This document shows positions 16,020 to 29,644 of a stretch of DNA of 64,000 nt, in pieces. Position numbers and translations under genes: made by a program. The number at the start of each line of letters is the position of its first letter. Within the stretch, counting starts at the first letter, position 1. Below the pieces are notes generated by a model, which was not told the origin of the DNA, did not search any database, and was given only the letters and a program-made list of their open reading frames with translations. The DNA is from Leptolyngbyaceae cyanobacterium (lineage in GTDB: Bacteria > Cyanobacteriota > Cyanobacteriia > Phormidesmidales > Phormidesmidaceae): contig JBHJHA010000019.1 of assembly GCA_050331235.1 (NCBI GenBank), positions 1 through 64,000 on the forward strand, in the 5' to 3' direction.

Positions 16020-16147
16020 TGAAACCTTGCCGACAATCACCGACACCACCCCGAAATTGATCCGTATATTGATACCCAGATGGAGGTGAGCGGGCATGCA
16101 TGAGGATGTCTCAGTTGCTGCATCCCGTGACCTAACGCTACGAGTAA

Positions 16148-17286
16148 TACCAATTCTCTGATGCCGGCTACAGATAGAGCCCCTAAGATGGATTCTCTGC
16201 CGGTAATCGAAGCGATCGTCTCGGTGCTCAAAGCGAGCAACTGCTCTTTGATAAGTTGTCGCAGTTCATCTAAGGTCTTAAGACAGCGCCAGCGCAACCG
16301 CTTTTTGAGATACTGCCAGACTTGCTCAATCGGGTTATATTCGGGGGAATGGGCGGGTTGAAACATCAAGATGATATGGTCCGGCACCTGTAACCGTTTC
16401 GCTTGATGCCACCCCGCTTGGTCGAGTTGAATGACCACAATACTGTCGGGGTATTGCTGAGCCACCAGTTTGAGAAAGCGTTGGAAACACTCGGTATTGC
16501 AATGGGTGAACGCGTAGAAAAAGTGCTCCCCGTCGCGGGTTCCACCATCCCATAGAGATAGGTGGCCTTGAAGGTCCATCGGACTTTGCCCACAGGCTTG
16601 ACCCCACGGGCGGTAATGCGGCGACCAGTCAGAGTTTTGAGGCCTAAGCGACTTTCATCCTGGCAGAAGAACCGGACGGTACCCGGCCCGGCCAACTCCG
16701 TCATGGCGAAGTAGGCCACCATCGCCAAGTTCTCAGCCAGTTTTTTTATATGCCGCTAACGCGGCTTCGTCTTGCTGGTTACTTTTCGGTCGCACCACTT
16801 TGGGCGCGGCGCCGAGGCGATAGTAGACCCACTTGTGAACGGTTTTGTACGGCGCCACGATCCCTAGATGGGTCGCCAACCAGTCATGGATGGCCGCATA
16901 ACTTTCAAAGCCTTCTGACTGCTCTAACCGCTTTCTCAAGGCCGTTTCTGCCCATTCGGGAAGGGTCGATTTGTCACCGGTATGAGGGGCGTGAGCCAGC
17001 AGGTGCGAAAGACCGCCATAACGATGGCGCTTGGCCCATTTCTGCGCCGTCACCCGATGGCGGCCGAGCCAAGTCGCCGCTTCCTGCATCGTTTCCACTT
17101 GTCCACTTTTCAAGAGATACAACAGGTGAACGCGATCTCTGTCCGTGGCGCTTTTCTGCTCTCTCAAGAGGGCTTTGAGCACTTCTTCACTTTCGGGGAT
17201 CTCAAGATGATAGACGCCTGACATGGTTCTTACTCAATCCTTCATATCCGTTCTAGCATCTGTAGTCTTAATCCAAAGAATTGGTA
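16148..17286 (-). mobile_element. IS630-family insertion sequence (~1.14 kb), probably defective
   Basis: Inverted ends ATACCAATTCT (16147-16157) and AGAATTGGTAT (17277-17287), with TA at 16148-49 and 17285-86; shared subterminal CTACAGAT; encodes HTH and DDE segments. Confidence 0.92.
16150..17224 (-). pseudogene. IS630 transposase split over three frames
   Basis: orfA HTH (16733-17224) ends at the slippery TATAAAAAAAC; FCQDESRLG in a second frame; LDQAGWH and PAHSPEYNPIEQVW in a third frame after a 1-nt loss in a G run at 16528-16531. Confidence 0.85.
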
Positions 17287-24175: not shown

Positions 24176-26137
24176 CTATGTCGGTTGACCCATCGCCAAA
24201 CAGGCTCGAATCATCGCTGCCGCCTCAGCCAAATCAGCCTCAAGGGTAGCCTGAAAATCTGGATGGTCTTGGGCTCGGTTGACTCGCCACAGGGCAAGCG
24301 CCACTTGTTGTGCTGCCAAAAATAGCTTGAGATGGGGCAACTGCGCCGGTGGAAACGGCCGGACCTGTCTATACCCCTGTAGCAAACTCGCTAGACAGTT
24401 AGAGTAGTGAGGCTCATCAGCAAAATCGTTGAGCAACCGCGCCAAGTCATAGCCCCAGTAGCCCCAACCACAGTCGGCAAAATCAATGACGCCAATGTCG
24501 TCAGCCTGCACCAGCAGATTTCCCAGCCAAAAGTCACCGTGGATTAGGCCAAATTGTTCGGCGTCTTCGCCCAGGGAGTTCATCACTGCTTTTACCTCGG
24601 TGCTGACGGTTGTAAACAATTGACGATAGGGTGCTGGCGTCAAAGACCACACGCGATCGCCTTGGTTGCTATAGCCAGCATGGGCACCAAACAGCCCATC
24701 CCAATCCCAGCGAGGGCGGTCAAAGCCAGCCGGTGGTTGCCAATGGGCTCCGTGGCGATGCAGCCGGCCGAGGGTGCGACCAACGGCGGTCAGGAGGTGG
24801 GGAGATCGTCGCTCTGCTCTGGGCAAATCGAGTAGTGATCGTCCTGCCACCCACCCAGTGAGTGAGCACCCCCGGGGTGCAGCCATCCCTAGTATTTGCC
24901 CCGTTGAATCAAAGGCTTGATCGCGTGTTGGCAAGGGTTCTGGCACACGTAGCGGACTGTGATGGAACAGCTCATGCAGCCACTGCAGTTCTGAACGGAT
25001 CGCCGGCAGCGAGAGGTAGTCAGCCCGATGAATGCGCAAAATGCAGCGATCGCGGTTCACCTCTAGGGTGCGATCGCGGTCCGCGGGCAATAAGCTGCGT
25101 TGACCTTGCACAGCAAAGACGGTGTTGTCACCGTGGGCAATGAGCTCTATCGTCGCTTGATGAAACCCATAGGTCGGCAGCACCGTTGCAGCCAGTTGGG
25201 TTAATTGTTGAGTTTGCTCAGATGCGGTCAAGTCACAGAAGGCGGTGTCAGCCCACCGCCGCCGCTGCCAATGATGCCGTGCCGGCTGTGATCGCCACTG
25301 CTCTTGCTGTCGCACAAACAATCCTTTGAGCGCTGCGGGGACCCGCTCATAGGTCGCCGGAGACATCGTCATCCGCGACTGCTGCTCATAGTTGACCGCC
25401 TCTTGAAACCATGACCGATAGTAGGTGATGTACAAAAGCGGTCGCACCCGGTTAGAAACGTTGGGGGTGCCGCCGTGCAACAGTTGATAATCCATCAGGT
25501 AACAGGAACCCTTAGCAACATAGGGCACTGCCGAGTCCGGCAGGGGTAGTGCCTGGTCGCCAGCCACCCGATGACTCCCCTTCCACACGCGGGTAGAGCC
25601 CGTTTCGGGGGTCAGATCAACCAGTGGCACTGCCAAAGTAATGGCAAAACTCGGCGGCGGCTGGGACAAATCAGGGGTTTCAAAGAGGGGCGGGTGATCG
25701 CGATGCACATGTTGGCTTGCTGCCCCCGGCAAGGCTACTACCACCCCAAAGCTACCCAACACAAAATCTGGCCCGAGCAGCCCCCGCATCAAAGCCAGCC
25801 CTAGCGGATTGCCATAAATTAGCGGGTGGTCAAACGGCGGCTGCAAATCGACCGTCAGCATGCGCCGTTTATCCCCAACCTTTAGCACGTGGTCGTAGTC
25901 TCGATCTTGCAAATAGGGTTGGTATTGAGCTAGTAAGGCAGCCTGCAGGTCGTCAATTAGGACCGGCGGGAGCAAGTTTCTAATGACCAGCACTCCCTGA
26001 TCTTGAAACAGTTGCTGAGCCGCCGCAATCAACTCACCATTCATCAACTCTGACACCGGTAAATCGGTCGGTAGTTCAACCGCCGGCGGCTGATTGGACT
26101 GGGTATTTTTATAAATCCGCACCGAAAACGTTGACAT
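24176..26137 (-). CDS. Fusion of PhyH-family Fe(II)/2OG dioxygenase and APH/homoserine-kinase-II-like phosphotransferase
   Basis: N-half QHVHRDHP (HxD), GSTRVWKGSH, LLHGGTPN..RP; C-half LRIHR, HGDFWLGNLL, IDFADCG. Confidence 0.85.
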   Translation of the reverse strand: MSTFSVRIYKNTQSNQPPAVELPTDLPVSELMNGELIAAAQQLFQDQGVLVIRNLLPPVLIDDLQAALLAQYQPYLQDRDYDHVLKVGDKRRMLTVDLQPPFDHPLIYGNPLGLALMRGLLGPDFVLGSFGVVVALPGAASQHVHRDHPPLFETPDLSQPPPSFAITLAVPLVDLTPETGSTRVWKGSHRVAGDQALPLPDSAVPYVAKGSCYLMDYQLLHGGTPNVSNRVRPLLYITYYRSWFQEAVNYEQQSRMTMSPATYERVPAALKGLFVRQQEQWRSQPARHHWQRRRWADTAFCDLTASEQTQQLTQLAATVLPTYGFHQATIELIAHGDNTVFAVQGQRSLLPADRDRTLEVNRDRCILRIHRADYLSLPAIRSELQWLHELFHHSPLRVPEPLPTRDQAFDSTGQILGMAAPRGCSLTGWVAGRSLLDLPRAERRSPHLLTAVGRTLGRLHRHGAHWQPPAGFDRPRWDWDGLFGAHAGYSNQGDRVWSLTPAPYRQLFTTVSTEVKAVMNSLGEDAEQFGLIHGDFWLGNLLVQADDIGVIDFADCGWGYWGYDLARLLNDFADEPHYSNCLASLLQGYRQVRPFPPAQLPHLKLFLAAQQVALALWRVNRAQDHPDFQATLEADLAEAAAMIRACLAMGQPT

Positions 26138-26183
26138 AGCGCCTATGTTTACGACAATCTGCCCTCAGCTGCCTGCACCTGTC

Positions 26184-27599
26184 CTAACGCTGACTGACCC
26201 CATAGGGCGTACCAATGCTGTCAATCTCACCCAGACTAGCCATCGCCTGATGGATTAGGCTACAGGTTTCAGCGCGAGAGATGACGTCGTCAAGGTTTAA
26301 GGTATCAACATTGGGATAGTTCACCAGCACCCCCTGTTCCACTAAAGCGGCAACCAAACTGCGGTATTCGACGGGAATCGTCGCGGCGTCAGTAAAGCGG
26401 CTGAGCAGGTCATCAATGCTGGCGCCGCTGGTGACCTCGGTATAGCTGAGCCCCTGGGCGATCGCGACCAGCACATCTAGCTTGGTTAGCGATCGCTCAG
26501 GGTCAACGCCATTCCCAATGCCGTCGATAAAGCCCATCGCATAGGCCTGCTGCAAATCACCGTAAGCCCAATAATACTGAGACACATTGCGAATGGCGAC
26601 GACCTCCCGCACCGTCGGGACCTGGAATGCGCGGCTGACGATGGCGGCAAAATGGGCCTCTGTCAGGGCCAAATCGGGAAGAAATTCACCATTCGGAAAG
26701 CCTTGAACCACATCGATAGCCACCAGCCGATAAATGTAAGCACTCGCCCAATAGGTTGTGCTGACATCCGTGAAAGTTGTGATGGTTTCACTATCAAAAA
26801 TTTGCACGAGGGTTTCGCAGTTAGTCTCAGTCAGGTCGCCCCCATTCGCCGTCGTTCCTTGGATCAGCACTTCCCCCTGCTTGCAACGCTTAGATCTCTT
26901 GGCTTTTTTGCCAATACGACACTTACCGCCTTTCTTTTGAGACACAACAATGTAGGCTTGGTCGTCATCATCGACCGTACCAGTCACCACCGAGTAAGTG
27001 TTAGTCTGGGTAATGGTCTGCTCACGCCGATATTCAAAGGTCAGCGCACTTGCCTGCACGTTGGTCACGATGAGACTGCCCGCCGTGGCTCCGATCGCCG
27101 TAGCCTCAGCAGCACCGGTGGCATATTCAATCACCTGTAGGGCGGTCTCACCCGCAACAAACGCCGCTTCATCCTCAAAGATCTGAATCAGGGTTTCAGA
27201 CCGTGTCTCATTGACAATGGTAAATTCCGTTCCAGATACTGTAGTGCCCTGGAAGTAAACCTCACAGGCTTTGCCCCGTTTGGCTTTTTTCGCTCGTTTC
27301 GCCTTTTTGGCTTTCTTGGCTTTTTTGTTTTGCTTGGTTTCGCTATCGGCGATCAGCCCATCACTAACCAGGCTCTCTTCATCGGCGAGGTACTCAAAGG
27401 TCAACGCTTGCGGGCTCGAGGGTGGGTTGACCGTTGTCTCTAGTTGGCTTGACTGGTCGCCGGCATCAGCGGGGTCTGCCAAGTCGCTTACCTCTAGGCC
27501 AGCAATCTGTGCCATGACGCTGACGGGGCTACTGACGGCAAACCCTGCACAGAGAACAAGGCAGCGCCAAACCTTAAATCGTGAAGACTTATTAGCCAT
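26184..27599 (-). CDS. Exported S-layer homology (SLH) domain protein with two repeated N-terminal domains carrying Lys-rich inserts
   Basis: Signal-like N-terminus; SLH motifs FTDVSTTYWASAYI..GFPNGEFLP, VSQYYWAY, FTDAATIP..VNYPN..ISRAE; ALTFEY repeated 120 aa apart. Confidence 0.85.
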   Translation of the reverse strand: MANKSSRFKVWRCLVLCAGFAVSSPVSVMAQIAGLEVSDLADPADAGDQSSQLETTVNPPSSPQALTFEYLADEESLVSDGLIADSETKQNKKAKKAKKAKRAKKAKRGKACEVYFQGTTVSGTEFTIVNETRSETLIQIFEDEAAFVAGETALQVIEYATGAAEATAIGATAGSLIVTNVQASALTFEYRREQTITQTNTYSVVTGTVDDDDQAYIVVSQKKGGKCRIGKKAKRSKRCKQGEVLIQGTTANGGDLTETNCETLVQIFDSETITTFTDVSTTYWASAYIYRLVAIDVVQGFPNGEFLPDLALTEAHFAAIVSRAFQVPTVREVVAIRNVSQYYWAYGDLQQAYAMGFIDGIGNGVDPERSLTKLDVLVAIAQGLSYTEVTSGASIDDLLSRFTDAATIPVEYRSLVAALVEQGVLVNYPNVDTLNLDDVISRAETCSLIHQAMASLGEIDSIGTPYGVSQR

Positions 27600-28117
27600 A
27601 AACTCTTAAACCGTAAGATGGTGTCCGAAAAACCCTGAACTGAGGCCAGTCGCTTAAGTCATAATCAACACATCGTCAACTGCAATGGCGATCGCGTCGG
27701 GTAGTCTAACTTGGCAACAATTTTTACTTTTTTTAACCGCTTCTGTCGCCTCAGACGTTGCGATCGTCCATTAAGTTTCGGCCATCTTCGGCAAAATCCT
27801 AGGAAAAACGCCAGTTTACTCTAGGGAATCAATTTCAGCCGGATCACGTCTGCTTAACCCAGGGTAAAGAAATATCTGGAGCTGTAACCGACAGCCGTCA
27901 TGACAGCTAACGTGGCCAATCGTACTTTTTGATCACAGCGACTACTGATATCAGCCAGGGCAATCATGGGGCAGAGATCGCGTCACCTGAGGCTCGTCTC
28001 ATTACCATATGGCCGAGGTCAGACGGCTCTGGCAGCATCTGCTCAGGCTGAGGGCTACCACCGCAGCGACAACATGGCTCAATTGCTCACCCATTATTCG
28101 GAATCATTCAGACCACG

Positions 28118-29644
28118 ATGCAAACTTGGACCCACGGCTACGTTTCAGATATCAGCTATGACTACAGCTTTTTTCCTGAGCTGTCACCGACCAGCATGGC
28201 GTTCAATCTGCTAAATAGCCGCTATGTTCCCCCTTCCCTTGAGCAATTTACCTATTGCGAACTGGGCTGTGGCCAAGGCTTTACCACCAATATTTTGGCG
28301 GCTACTCACCCCCAGGGTGAGTTTTGGGGCATCGACTTTAACCCGACCCACACGGCTGAAGCCCAGCGGTTAGCCCAGGCGGCCCAACTTTCTAACATGC
28401 AGTTTTTCGATCACAGTTTTGCCGAGTTTCTGGCGGCTGACACTCCCCCCTTTGACTTCATTACACTGCATGGGGTGTATTCGTGGATTGACGATAAAAA
28501 TCGCCACCATATCGTCAACTTACTCCAGCAAAAGCTCAAGGTAGGGGGAGCCGTTTACATCAGCTACAACGCTTTGCCTGGGTGGGCAGCGCTGATGCCC
28601 CTGCAAATGCTGATGCAACAATCTTCTAGTCAAAGCGGCGACTCTAGCCTCCACAAAATAGAAGCGGGCATGGCCTTTGCCCAACAGTTGCAGGGTGTAA
28701 AAGCGCGATATTTTTTAGACAATCCCAGCGTCAAGGCGGATCTTGAGGCCATGACCGATGACTCGCGTCACTATTTGGCCCATGAGTATCTCAATCAAAA
28801 TTGGCAACCGTTTTACCATTCGGAGGTGGTGCAACAGTTGGCTGAGGCAAAGCTCACGTATGCAACATCTGGAGACATCGACGATCAGTTTTACGACTTC
28901 AAACTGACTGAGGCGCAGTTGAGTCTGCTAGCAGAGATTCCTGATCTGGTCCGACGCGAAACGATTCGTGATTTTCTGTTTAACACGCGGTTTCGGCGCG
29001 ATTTGTTTGTCAAGGGTGCCGTGCGGCTAGGGGCTCTGGAGCAGGTCGAGCAGTTGAGTCAGGTTTACTTTGCGCTCATTATCAACCCTGAGGAGATGGC
29101 ATATGAAGTCGACTTGGTCGGTCGCTCAATCAAGCTTGAGCAAGCCATTTATGAGCCCATCGTGGCAGCCTTTGCCACCCAACCGCGGTCGCTACGCGAG
29201 CTGATGCGTCATCCGGACCTCAAGCAGCTAGACTTTGTCACCATTTGCCAAGCTCTCAAGATTTTGATCTCAACTTACCAAGTCACCCCTGCCTTACCGC
29301 CCGCCGAGGCGGCCCGTCGCCGCACCGCCACCACGGCACTCAACCAGGCGATCTTAAGGCGATCGCGCTTTGGGGCAGATACACAGGTGTTGGCCTCTCC
29401 TGTGACGGCAAGCGGCATTGATGTCTCGCGATCGGAGCAGCTTTTTTTATTGGCCCACCTCAGGCAGGCTGACCCTGTGGCATTTGTCTGGAGCCTTTTG
29501 CAAGTCCAAGGCGAAAAGCTCATTAAGGATGGTGAGGTGCTGGCTACCGCCGCCGCTAATCAAGCAGAACTAGCGGCTCAAGCCCAGCAGTTTCAGCAGC
29601 AACGCTTACCCCTGTTTCAACAGCTTGGCATTCTGGAGTCGTGA
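28118..29644 (+). CDS. Class I SAM methyltransferase with methyltransferase regulatory domain
   Basis: YCELGCGQG, GIDFNP, FDFITLHGVYSW, YISYNALPGW, YLAHEYLN, FRRDLFVKG. Confidence 0.88.
   Translation: MQTWTHGYVSDISYDYSFFPELSPTSMAFNLLNSRYVPPSLEQFTYCELGCGQGFTTNILAATHPQGEFWGIDFNPTHTAEAQRLAQAAQLSNMQFFDHSFAEFLAADTPPFDFITLHGVYSWIDDKNRHHIVNLLQQKLKVGGAVYISYNALPGWAALMPLQMLMQQSSSQSGDSSLHKIEAGMAFAQQLQGVKARYFLDNPSVKADLEAMTDDSRHYLAHEYLNQNWQPFYHSEVVQQLAEAKLTYATSGDIDDQFYDFKLTEAQLSLLAEIPDLVRRETIRDFLFNTRFRRDLFVKGAVRLGALEQVEQLSQVYFALIINPEEMAYEVDLVGRSIKLEQAIYEPIVAAFATQPRSLRELMRHPDLKQLDFVTICQALKILISTYQVTPALPPAEAARRRTATTALNQAILRRSRFGADTQVLASPVTASGIDVSRSEQLFLLAHLRQADPVAFVWSLLQVQGEKLIKDGEVLATAAANQAELAAQAQQFQQQRLPLFQQLGILES

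Follow-up and report, generated by a model that had tools for sequence, protein, structure and literature searches.

A linked three-gene module in cyanobacteria combines a lysine-tract protein with a predicted oxygenase-kinase fusion and a PKMT/KmtA-type methyltransferase

A 64,000-nucleotide stretch of a Leptolyngbyaceae cyanobacterium genome (hereafter the window; contig C19 of genome G000) carries three genes in 5.5 kb that encode a predicted secreted protein with period-3 lysine tracts (P0002), a fusion of a PhyH-family 2-oxoglutarate (2OG)/Fe(II) oxygenase to an APH-fold kinase (P0001), and a class I S-adenosylmethionine (SAM, AdoMet) methyltransferase (P0003). These genes form a real, linked and co-evolving module, found in cyanobacteria (the window genome is cyanobacterial, as are its named homologues). 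Their linkage is firm and surprising, and the chemistry that we infer for them, namely that the enzymes would methylate, hydroxylate and O-phosphorylate the lysines of the (K-x-x)n tracts in the cytoplasm before export, is a proposition that we regard as evenly balanced. A reading of the window from its sequence alone had placed the three open reading frames (ORFs) between ppk1 and metH, with the gap and spacer listed in Table 1, and had recognized a PhyH/APH fusion and a regulatory-domain methyltransferase. All of this holds: both flanking genes score above the NCBIfam cut-off, Pfam places PhyH at residues 44-232 and APH at 363-591 of P0001, and P0003 matches a Pfam class I methyltransferase and MethyTransf_Reg.

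The evidence for the module comes from other genomes. Scans recovered a full-length fusion at 19 of 20 species-genome loci and at 4 of 48 metagenome loci (one a duplicate), and the neighbour analysis covers 23 loci (19, 3 and the window). The genomes are related and in part fragmented metagenome-assembled genomes (MAGs), so the counts are not independent and no p-value is given. A P0003 orthologue, at 58-77% identity, is present in 16 of the 19 other fusion genomes, and a lysine-tract DUF7467 protein in 17 of them, 15 being of the signal-peptide type and two being giant SdrD_B-DUF7467 proteins, encoded one gene from the fusion, with Lys/Gly tracts and period-3 Lys runs of 5 and 3. A P0002 homologue neighbours the fusion in 14 of the 23 loci and a P0003 orthologue in 11; these are the only specific recurrent neighbours, the others being generic and confined to at most 5 loci. 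The gene immediately upstream of the fusion, in the same orientation, is the P0002 homologue, at a distance of 98-623 bp in 13 other loci, while the methyltransferase may be divergent upstream (a layout around the spacer repeated in L019 and L020), convergent downstream, or 3-4 kb away. In the window itself, the 46-bp gap yielded no terminator-like site, and a sigma-70 scan of the divergent spacer placed no site. The linkage that the sequence-only reading had anticipated is borne out, in that the genes co-occur elsewhere, remain neighbours under several gene orders, and share trees.

Genomes without the fusion present a different picture. Among 60 of them, 16 have a P0003 match; 15 of these are paralogues at 28-41% identity, and the one remaining, in G028, is an orthologue at 68-70% (G028:C110:15264-16329) broken by an in-frame stop, a frameshift and a truncation, in a genome that is 99% complete and in which neither a fusion nor a DUF7467 match was found. 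DUF7467 occurs in 2 of the 60. An even class sample of 350 genomes, overlapping the 60 and searched with fusion and orthologue scans that scored 3-4 candidates per genome, yielded the full fusion once and the P0003 orthologue once, both in G123, whose contig coordinates are identical to those of G061; 13 further genomes have 39-42% paralogues of P0003, and ten have DUF7467. In ten genomes without the fusion, the period-3 Lys runs of DUF7467 proteins measure 0-3 over the stretches that were read, versus 6-11 in the module proteins.

It might be supposed that nothing but joint inheritance on one island connects the three genes, as unrelated passengers. The block is indeed an insertion, because ppk1 adjoins metH, about 0.2 kb apart, at an empty site in G003 of the same genus (the fusion was found in 0 of 13 same-genus genomes), and linkage alone would yield shared trees. 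Nonetheless, we consider mere co-inheritance very improbable, since the methyltransferase is placed in three or more ways with respect to the fusion, all three genes are retained in G064, G065 and G067 although they lie on separate contigs, the lone orthologue of a fusion-less genome is broken, and long tracts are seen in fusion genomes only. The module also appears to have moved as a unit. G000, G061, G062 and G063 form a group in each of the gene trees (fusion, 100/100; methyltransferase, 99; Lys protein, 0.93), and G073 pairs with G075 in all three. MetH rejects the four-genome clade (p-AU 8e-33), where MetH is one gene with some partial rows and the approximately unbiased (AU) test was made after a quick MetH tree had been viewed. 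Because the three gene trees agree with one another and conflict with MetH, we conclude from these phylogenies that the genes were co-transferred as a mobile cassette, for which we claim no donor.

Table 1. Features of the module in the window
Feature	Position	Strand	Basis
P0001, PhyH-family 2OG/Fe(II) oxygenase and APH-fold kinase fusion, 653 aa	24176..26137	-	ORF calling, Pfam
Oxygenase domain of P0001 (predicted), residues 1-280, H145-D147-H221 triad and R232	25298..26137	-	alignment, closest solved relative KanJ
Kinase domain of P0001 (predicted), residues 300-650, H533-x-D535-x4-N540 and D552-x-x-D555	24188..25240	-	alignment, closest solved relative 6ef6
46-bp gap between Lys-tract gene and fusion	26138..26183	-	sequence
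P0002, predicted secreted Lys-tract protein, 471 aa: signal peptide, two DUF7467 repeats each with a Lys tract, SLH region	26184..27599	-	Pfam, alignment, model
Predicted Sec signal peptide of P0002, residues 1-30	27510..27599	-	by eye, pattern across 19 rows
Lys tract 1, residues 89-110, eight Lys at period 3	27270..27335	-	sequence, alignment
Lys tract 2, residues 222-241, with invariant Cys227	26877..26936	-	sequence, alignment
Two DUF7467 repeats	26790..27413	-	Pfam
SLH region, residues 275-460	26220..26777	-	Pfam, alignment
Divergent spacer, 518 bp	27600..28117	.	sequence
P0003, class I SAM methyltransferase with MethyTransf_Reg, 508 aa, PKMT/KmtA-type	28118..29644	+	Pfam, PDB search

What marks the partner protein is its lysine pattern. 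P0002 is the sole ORF among 4440 in G000 with at least six Lys at period 3 (3 of the 4440 reach five), and the polybasic tracts of the sequence-only reading, whose quoted peptide corresponds to residues 92-108, are real. The two tracts hold 20 of the 23 Lys of the protein and are not a pure DNA microsatellite, because their codons are mixed (AAA/AAG, GCC/GCG). Tract 1 directly precedes the conserved Cys113. In the alignment of 19 module proteins (A3), K98, K101, K104 and K107 are invariant in all rows; four period-3 lysines and two cysteines are what homologues share without exception, while the residues between them vary (KKA, KKS, KQS, KKF, KRF, KKY). Every one of the 19 has a period-3 run of 6-11, that is (K-x-x)6-11 within DUF7467. 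Over 135 triplets, position 1 alone is fixed, as Lys and never Arg; position 2 is Arg in 26, and position 3 is A in 41, S in 37, F in 24, G in 13, Y in 7 and another residue in 13. Since only position 1 is fixed, there is no conserved Ser/Thr/Tyr acceptor, and tract 1 of the window protein, like many other tracts, has no Ser, Thr or Tyr at all.

The basic, hydrophobic and cleavage segments of a signal peptide are conserved across the 19 rows, as judged by eye; a Tat signal was rejected on the same basis for P0002, which has a single Arg there, and by eye no signal peptide was seen on P0001. The module partners measure 270-520 aa. The sequence-only reading had described P0002 as an SLH surface protein with a role in adhesion or mineral nucleation. 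The SLH region and the tracts are indeed present in the window protein, where two DUF7467 stretches had been overlooked; the SLH region is found in 10 of the 19 homologues and is absent from 9, so an 'SLH protein' as the defining partner was rejected. The conserved substrate feature is (K-x-x)6-11 in DUF7467, not the SLH domain. A surface location is likewise unsupported; SLH domains of cyanobacteria probably attach to the wall on its periplasmic side, so that surface display would be no more than possible. The adhesion or mineral-nucleation role is also unsupported. The earlier interpretation is supported in part: its linkage stands, and hydroxylation and phosphorylation of the tracts are hypotheses.

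An AF2 model of P0002, of low confidence (pLDDT 54.9), suggests one beta core (residues 112-222) between two unstructured tracts, with tract 1 below pLDDT 50; a fold search with the DUF7467 core of this model gave no clear match (best Z 5.8). The Lys fraction outside the tracts is 0.007-0.016 versus 0.029 genome-wide, and was rejected as a distinctive trait because other G000 SLH regions range from 0 to 0.028. Two Lys-tract proteins (L033:6199-7614 and L197:1-1377) have another, unassigned C-terminal domain replacing SLH. An SLH protein of G000 (G000:C78:18900-19940, L018:8901-9941) is 55% identical to the P0002 SLH region and has a long poly-Asp run and a poly-Thr run where P0002 has its Lys tracts; it is a possible source of the P0002 SLH module or a possible anionic counterpart. 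A 330-aa ORF at G000:C17:119577-120569 has a short His/Lys-rich period-3 run near its N-terminus.

The methyltransferase points to protein lysines. The only PDB matches of P0003 are PKMT1 and PKMT2 of Rickettsia (E 1e-27 and 4e-27, residues 14-340), the homology spanning the AdoMet and dimerisation domains. The AdoMet-binding Asp102 and His146 of RpPKMT1 align with D73 and H118, both kept in 15 of 16 orthologue rows, the remaining row being partial; among the AdoMet-contact residues P0003, like KmtA, keeps the Asp and His and has the Leu changed. By its sequence P0003 belongs to the PKMT/KmtA family, and as a single gene it is a new member of a known family. According to the relevant passages of PMC8232902, PKMT1 and PKMT2 methylate lysines of OmpB, PKMT2 mainly to the trimethyl form, and their cytoplasmic action is inferred. 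The corresponding passages of PMC11784438 describe Acinetobacter KmtA as mainly monomethylating the adhesin AtaA, at more than 130 dispersed lysines without a sequence consensus, and place many Cyanobacteriota homologues in KmtA cluster A; six organism names and four accessions were not found in its supplements. The module resembles these systems in having a homologous enzyme, an exported protein target and an inferred cytoplasmic action, and differs from them in its dedicated small substrate, its period-3 Lys tracts and its hydroxylase-kinase partner. An earlier caveat, that the substrate would have to be modified before export, is eased, because the closest solved relatives act on exported proteins, as inferred in the cytoplasm (PMC8232902, in the passages cited above). 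G000 has a second PKMT-type methyltransferase (G000:C15:53817-55349, L017:8815-10350), 32% identical to P0003, and this is likely the 28-35% match seen in 13 of 13 same-genus genomes.

The fusion retains intact catalytic motifs in both halves. Its family comprises 67 matches among 7996 scored candidates, 60 of them with both PhyH and APH, and every PhyH+APH protein with a named organism is cyanobacterial. In an alignment of 56 of the 60 (four partial or insert-bearing sequences were left out), H145, H221 and the 2OG Arg R232 are kept in 56 of 56 rows, D147 in 55, and the kinase motifs in 55-56. The oxygenase half has the HxD...H triad, the 2OG-binding Arg and the DSBH fold (a double-stranded beta-helix) of the PhyH/KanJ type, and the kinase half has the HxDxxxxN and DFxD motifs and the APH fold of the amino-alcohol kinases; the AF2 model of P0001 has pLDDT 90.8 and pTM 0.64. 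The closest solved relative of the oxygenase is KanJ (E 2e-18), with which the fold agrees, and that of the kinase is the aminopropanol kinase 6ef6 (E 4e-27), also Foldseek rank 1. YihE is a weaker match to the kinase half (E 1e-8), and PRK06148, an APH-bearing NCBIfam model, reaches only E 2e-8, far under its cut-off. A plasmid collection gave no full-length fusion match, only kinase-half matches below 60%.

Several architectures combine the oxygenase with an APH-like domain, and either of the two may come first: P0070 is PhyH-APH (E 2.5e-7), P0071 and P0072 are APH-TPR-PhyH, and L038:8916-13082 (G080:C9, in a proteobacterial MAG labelled Limnobacter) encodes 1388 aa with PhyH, cupin-like, APH-like and SET regions. 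In the last of these the oxygenase is 47% identical, the APH-like stretch is weak (E 0.04) and the SET domain is above cut-off, with Atlas neighbours that include protein-lysine methyltransferases, which we take as a lead only. The pairing likely arose more than once, a view suggested by the failure of the P0070 kinase to align with that of P0001, and its recurrence fits an enzyme that makes a hydroxyl and then phosphorylates it. No longer fused forms were found with query residues 1-285, in a weak search that also missed the known L038 fusion. P0063 shows a PqqD-like domain below cut-off, and a stand-alone SET paralogue (28%) lies at L274:9124-10560 (G080:C6). A DNA pattern for period-3 Lys, run on five genomes, returned mostly 9-bp repeats, and its G080 match was rejected as not a Lys tract in the long ORF.

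Taken together, we believe the following pathway to be the most attractive. P0003 would use SAM to methylate the Lys epsilon-amines, in the way that PKMT1/2 and KmtA treat exported proteins; the Lys side chain would be hydroxylated, likely at C5, by the oxygenase half of P0001; and the kinase half would phosphorylate the new hydroxyl. The acceptor end, H2N-CH2-CH(OH)-, would match 1-amino-2-propanol, the substrate named for 6ef6, so that by analogy this substrate and 5-hydroxylysine would share an amino-alcohol end. We assume no fixed order of steps, and the degree of methylation is left free. The protein would then leave the cytoplasm, and versions with SLH would likely be anchored to the cell wall, the polycationic tracts having been turned into zwitterionic, phosphocholine-like arrays. 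A more specific version, which is possible and which we advance only tentatively, is that the three activities write epsilon-N-trimethyl-delta-hydroxylysine O-phosphate, a phosphocholine mimic held in protein and known chiefly from the silica walls of diatoms, on period-3 Lys arrays, that the fusion is a protein hydroxylysine kinase combined with a bacterial lysyl 5-hydroxylase, and that the SET version arose independently in a proteobacterium.

Several observations weigh against this pathway. The strongest is that the solved relatives of both fusion halves (6ef6, AmiN and KanJ) use small molecules and that stand-alone kinase relatives in Ruegeria have a catabolic layout, with genes for a class III aminotransferase and for an aldehyde dehydrogenase beside them. 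For KmtA, monomethylation predominates and a sequence consensus is lacking (same passages of PMC11784438). The C5 regiochemistry rests on one homologue; the L038 APH match is weak and the P0070 kinase does not align with that of P0001; and a search of G080 for a Lys-tract candidate to accompany the SET fusion found none. Three of the 19 fusion genomes (G076, G078 and G079, one clade in the fusion tree) have no methyltransferase, a Lys-tract protein was not found in two (G071 and G076), and the relatedness of these genomes and the fragmentation of their MAGs limit how far any count can be pressed. In the three methyltransferase-less fusion genomes a 234-248 aa protein without a Pfam or NCBIfam match adjoins the fusion (L036:9160-9906, L034:3790-4500, L037:5280-5984).

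The small-molecule relatives and the Ruegeria layout would suit a different model, in which a small molecule or a glycan of the wall, such as a hydroxylated, phosphorylated amine, is produced or altered by the enzymes and bound by the polybasic protein, the protein itself being touched at most by the methyltransferase; polybasic tracts would indeed bind phosphorylated anions. We nonetheless judge it unlikely. A phospho-lyase-type class III aminotransferase is present at 0 of 22 fusion loci (the best G000 matches, with one query, are 26-27% identical), no transporter or glycosyltransferase recurs in at least 3 of the 23 loci, the family of the methyltransferase has known protein lysine substrates, and anion binding fails to explain why position 1 is fixed as Lys and never Arg when Arg stands at position 2 of 26 of the 135 triplets.

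A second model keeps the Lys-tract protein as the target of the fusion and alters the chemistry, to a KanJ-like oxidative deamination to an aldehyde, a JmjC-like demethylation, or a kinase acting on existing Ser/Thr/Tyr independently of hydroxylation. KanJ, the closest oxygenase relative, oxidises an amine-bearing carbon; YihE, among the weaker kinase-half matches, is a protein Ser/Thr kinase; and Ser occupies 37 of 135 third positions. A RiPP (peptide made by the ribosome and modified after translation) enzyme whose nearest fold is KanJ has C-terminal amidation activity, as stated in the relevant section of PMC12912966. At the same time, the recurrent oxygenase and APH-like pairing, in both orders, fits hydroxylation followed by phosphorylation, and many tracts, tract 1 included, have no Ser, Thr or Tyr, so that we doubt this model.

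Taken as a whole, the module matches none of the systems with which it was compared. The kinase half resembles the aminopropanol kinase 6ef6, AmiN and hydroxylysine kinase in its APH fold and intact catalytic motifs. These three act on free small molecules, and the hydroxylysine route consists of a kinase and a phospho-lyase; in contrast, the P0001 kinase forms one protein with an oxygenase, and no phospho-lyase gene lies nearby. The passages on silaffins in PMC4557024 describe Lys clustered as KXXK and the residue trimethyl-5-hydroxylysine phosphate, and the module resembles them in its clustered KXXK lysines (19 of 19 rows, runs of 6-11). That residue contains a phosphocholine group, and by this analogy the likeness would be one of chemistry, not of membership: no sequence kinship to silaffins or cingulins was seen (none was tested), the module tracts have no fixed phosphoserine pattern, and there is no candidate polyamine transferase among the recurrent neighbours at the 23 loci, tract 1 being without Ser. 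In the same passages, silaffins are modified along the endoplasmic reticulum (ER)/Golgi route, and tpSTK1 is the only kinase named.

The oxygenase half shares fold and triad with KanJ-type PhyH oxygenases, whose relatives flank RiPP genes. Stand-alone relatives have as neighbours genes for a lasso cyclase and a lasso B2 protein, and also a RiPP radical-SAM gene (one locus tested each), and a PhyH-family gene is labelled in thioamidated RiPP clusters in a figure legend of PMC8120280. Unlike RiPP clusters, the module pairs its enzymes with a protein of 270-520 aa that carries a predicted signal peptide, and the ORFs of at least 100 aa that recur in at least 3 of the 23 loci include neither a short precursor or leader peptide nor a peptidase or exporter.

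The module was not found in the open-access literature, most subscription journals and bioRxiv supplements lying outside that search, and DUF7467 (PF24269) does not occur in the open-access papers checked. If the proposed pathway is correct, it would be a new post-translational modification system for bacteria and an enzymatic route to zwitterionic peptides. It would also supply candidate enzymes for a residue reported from diatom walls in 1970; the diatom-wall passages of PMC4557024 name neither a hydroxylase nor a hydroxylysine kinase. For DUF7467, as for the cyanobacterial KmtA-like methyltransferases, it would provide a first substrate. The three genes, 5.5 kb in all, are also carried by cultured strains: Coleofasciculus sp. 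LEGE 07092 shares the layout of the window, and in Leptolyngbya cf. ectocarpi LEGE 11479 the three genes adjoin one another.

Some further observations concern oxygenase relatives and the wider window. Stand-alone KanJ-like oxygenases of this clade lie beside lasso-peptide or RiPP radical-SAM genes at L045, L047, L052, L055, L057 and L063, and are possibly undescribed RiPP hydroxylases; a PRMT-like methyltransferase is encoded at L045 too, together with an HPr-kinase-like gene. At L060:1-18000, several 2OG oxygenases, TPR-methyltransferases and a TPR-sulfotransferase surround an oxygenase relative. In one genus, 8 of 11 genomes have a stand-alone oxygenase relative (41-43%) with no kinase half, for example at G039:C1:548811-549608. 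In the window, 7 kb from the module, two ORFs at 16037-17224 on the minus strand match an IS630-family transposase below cut-off.

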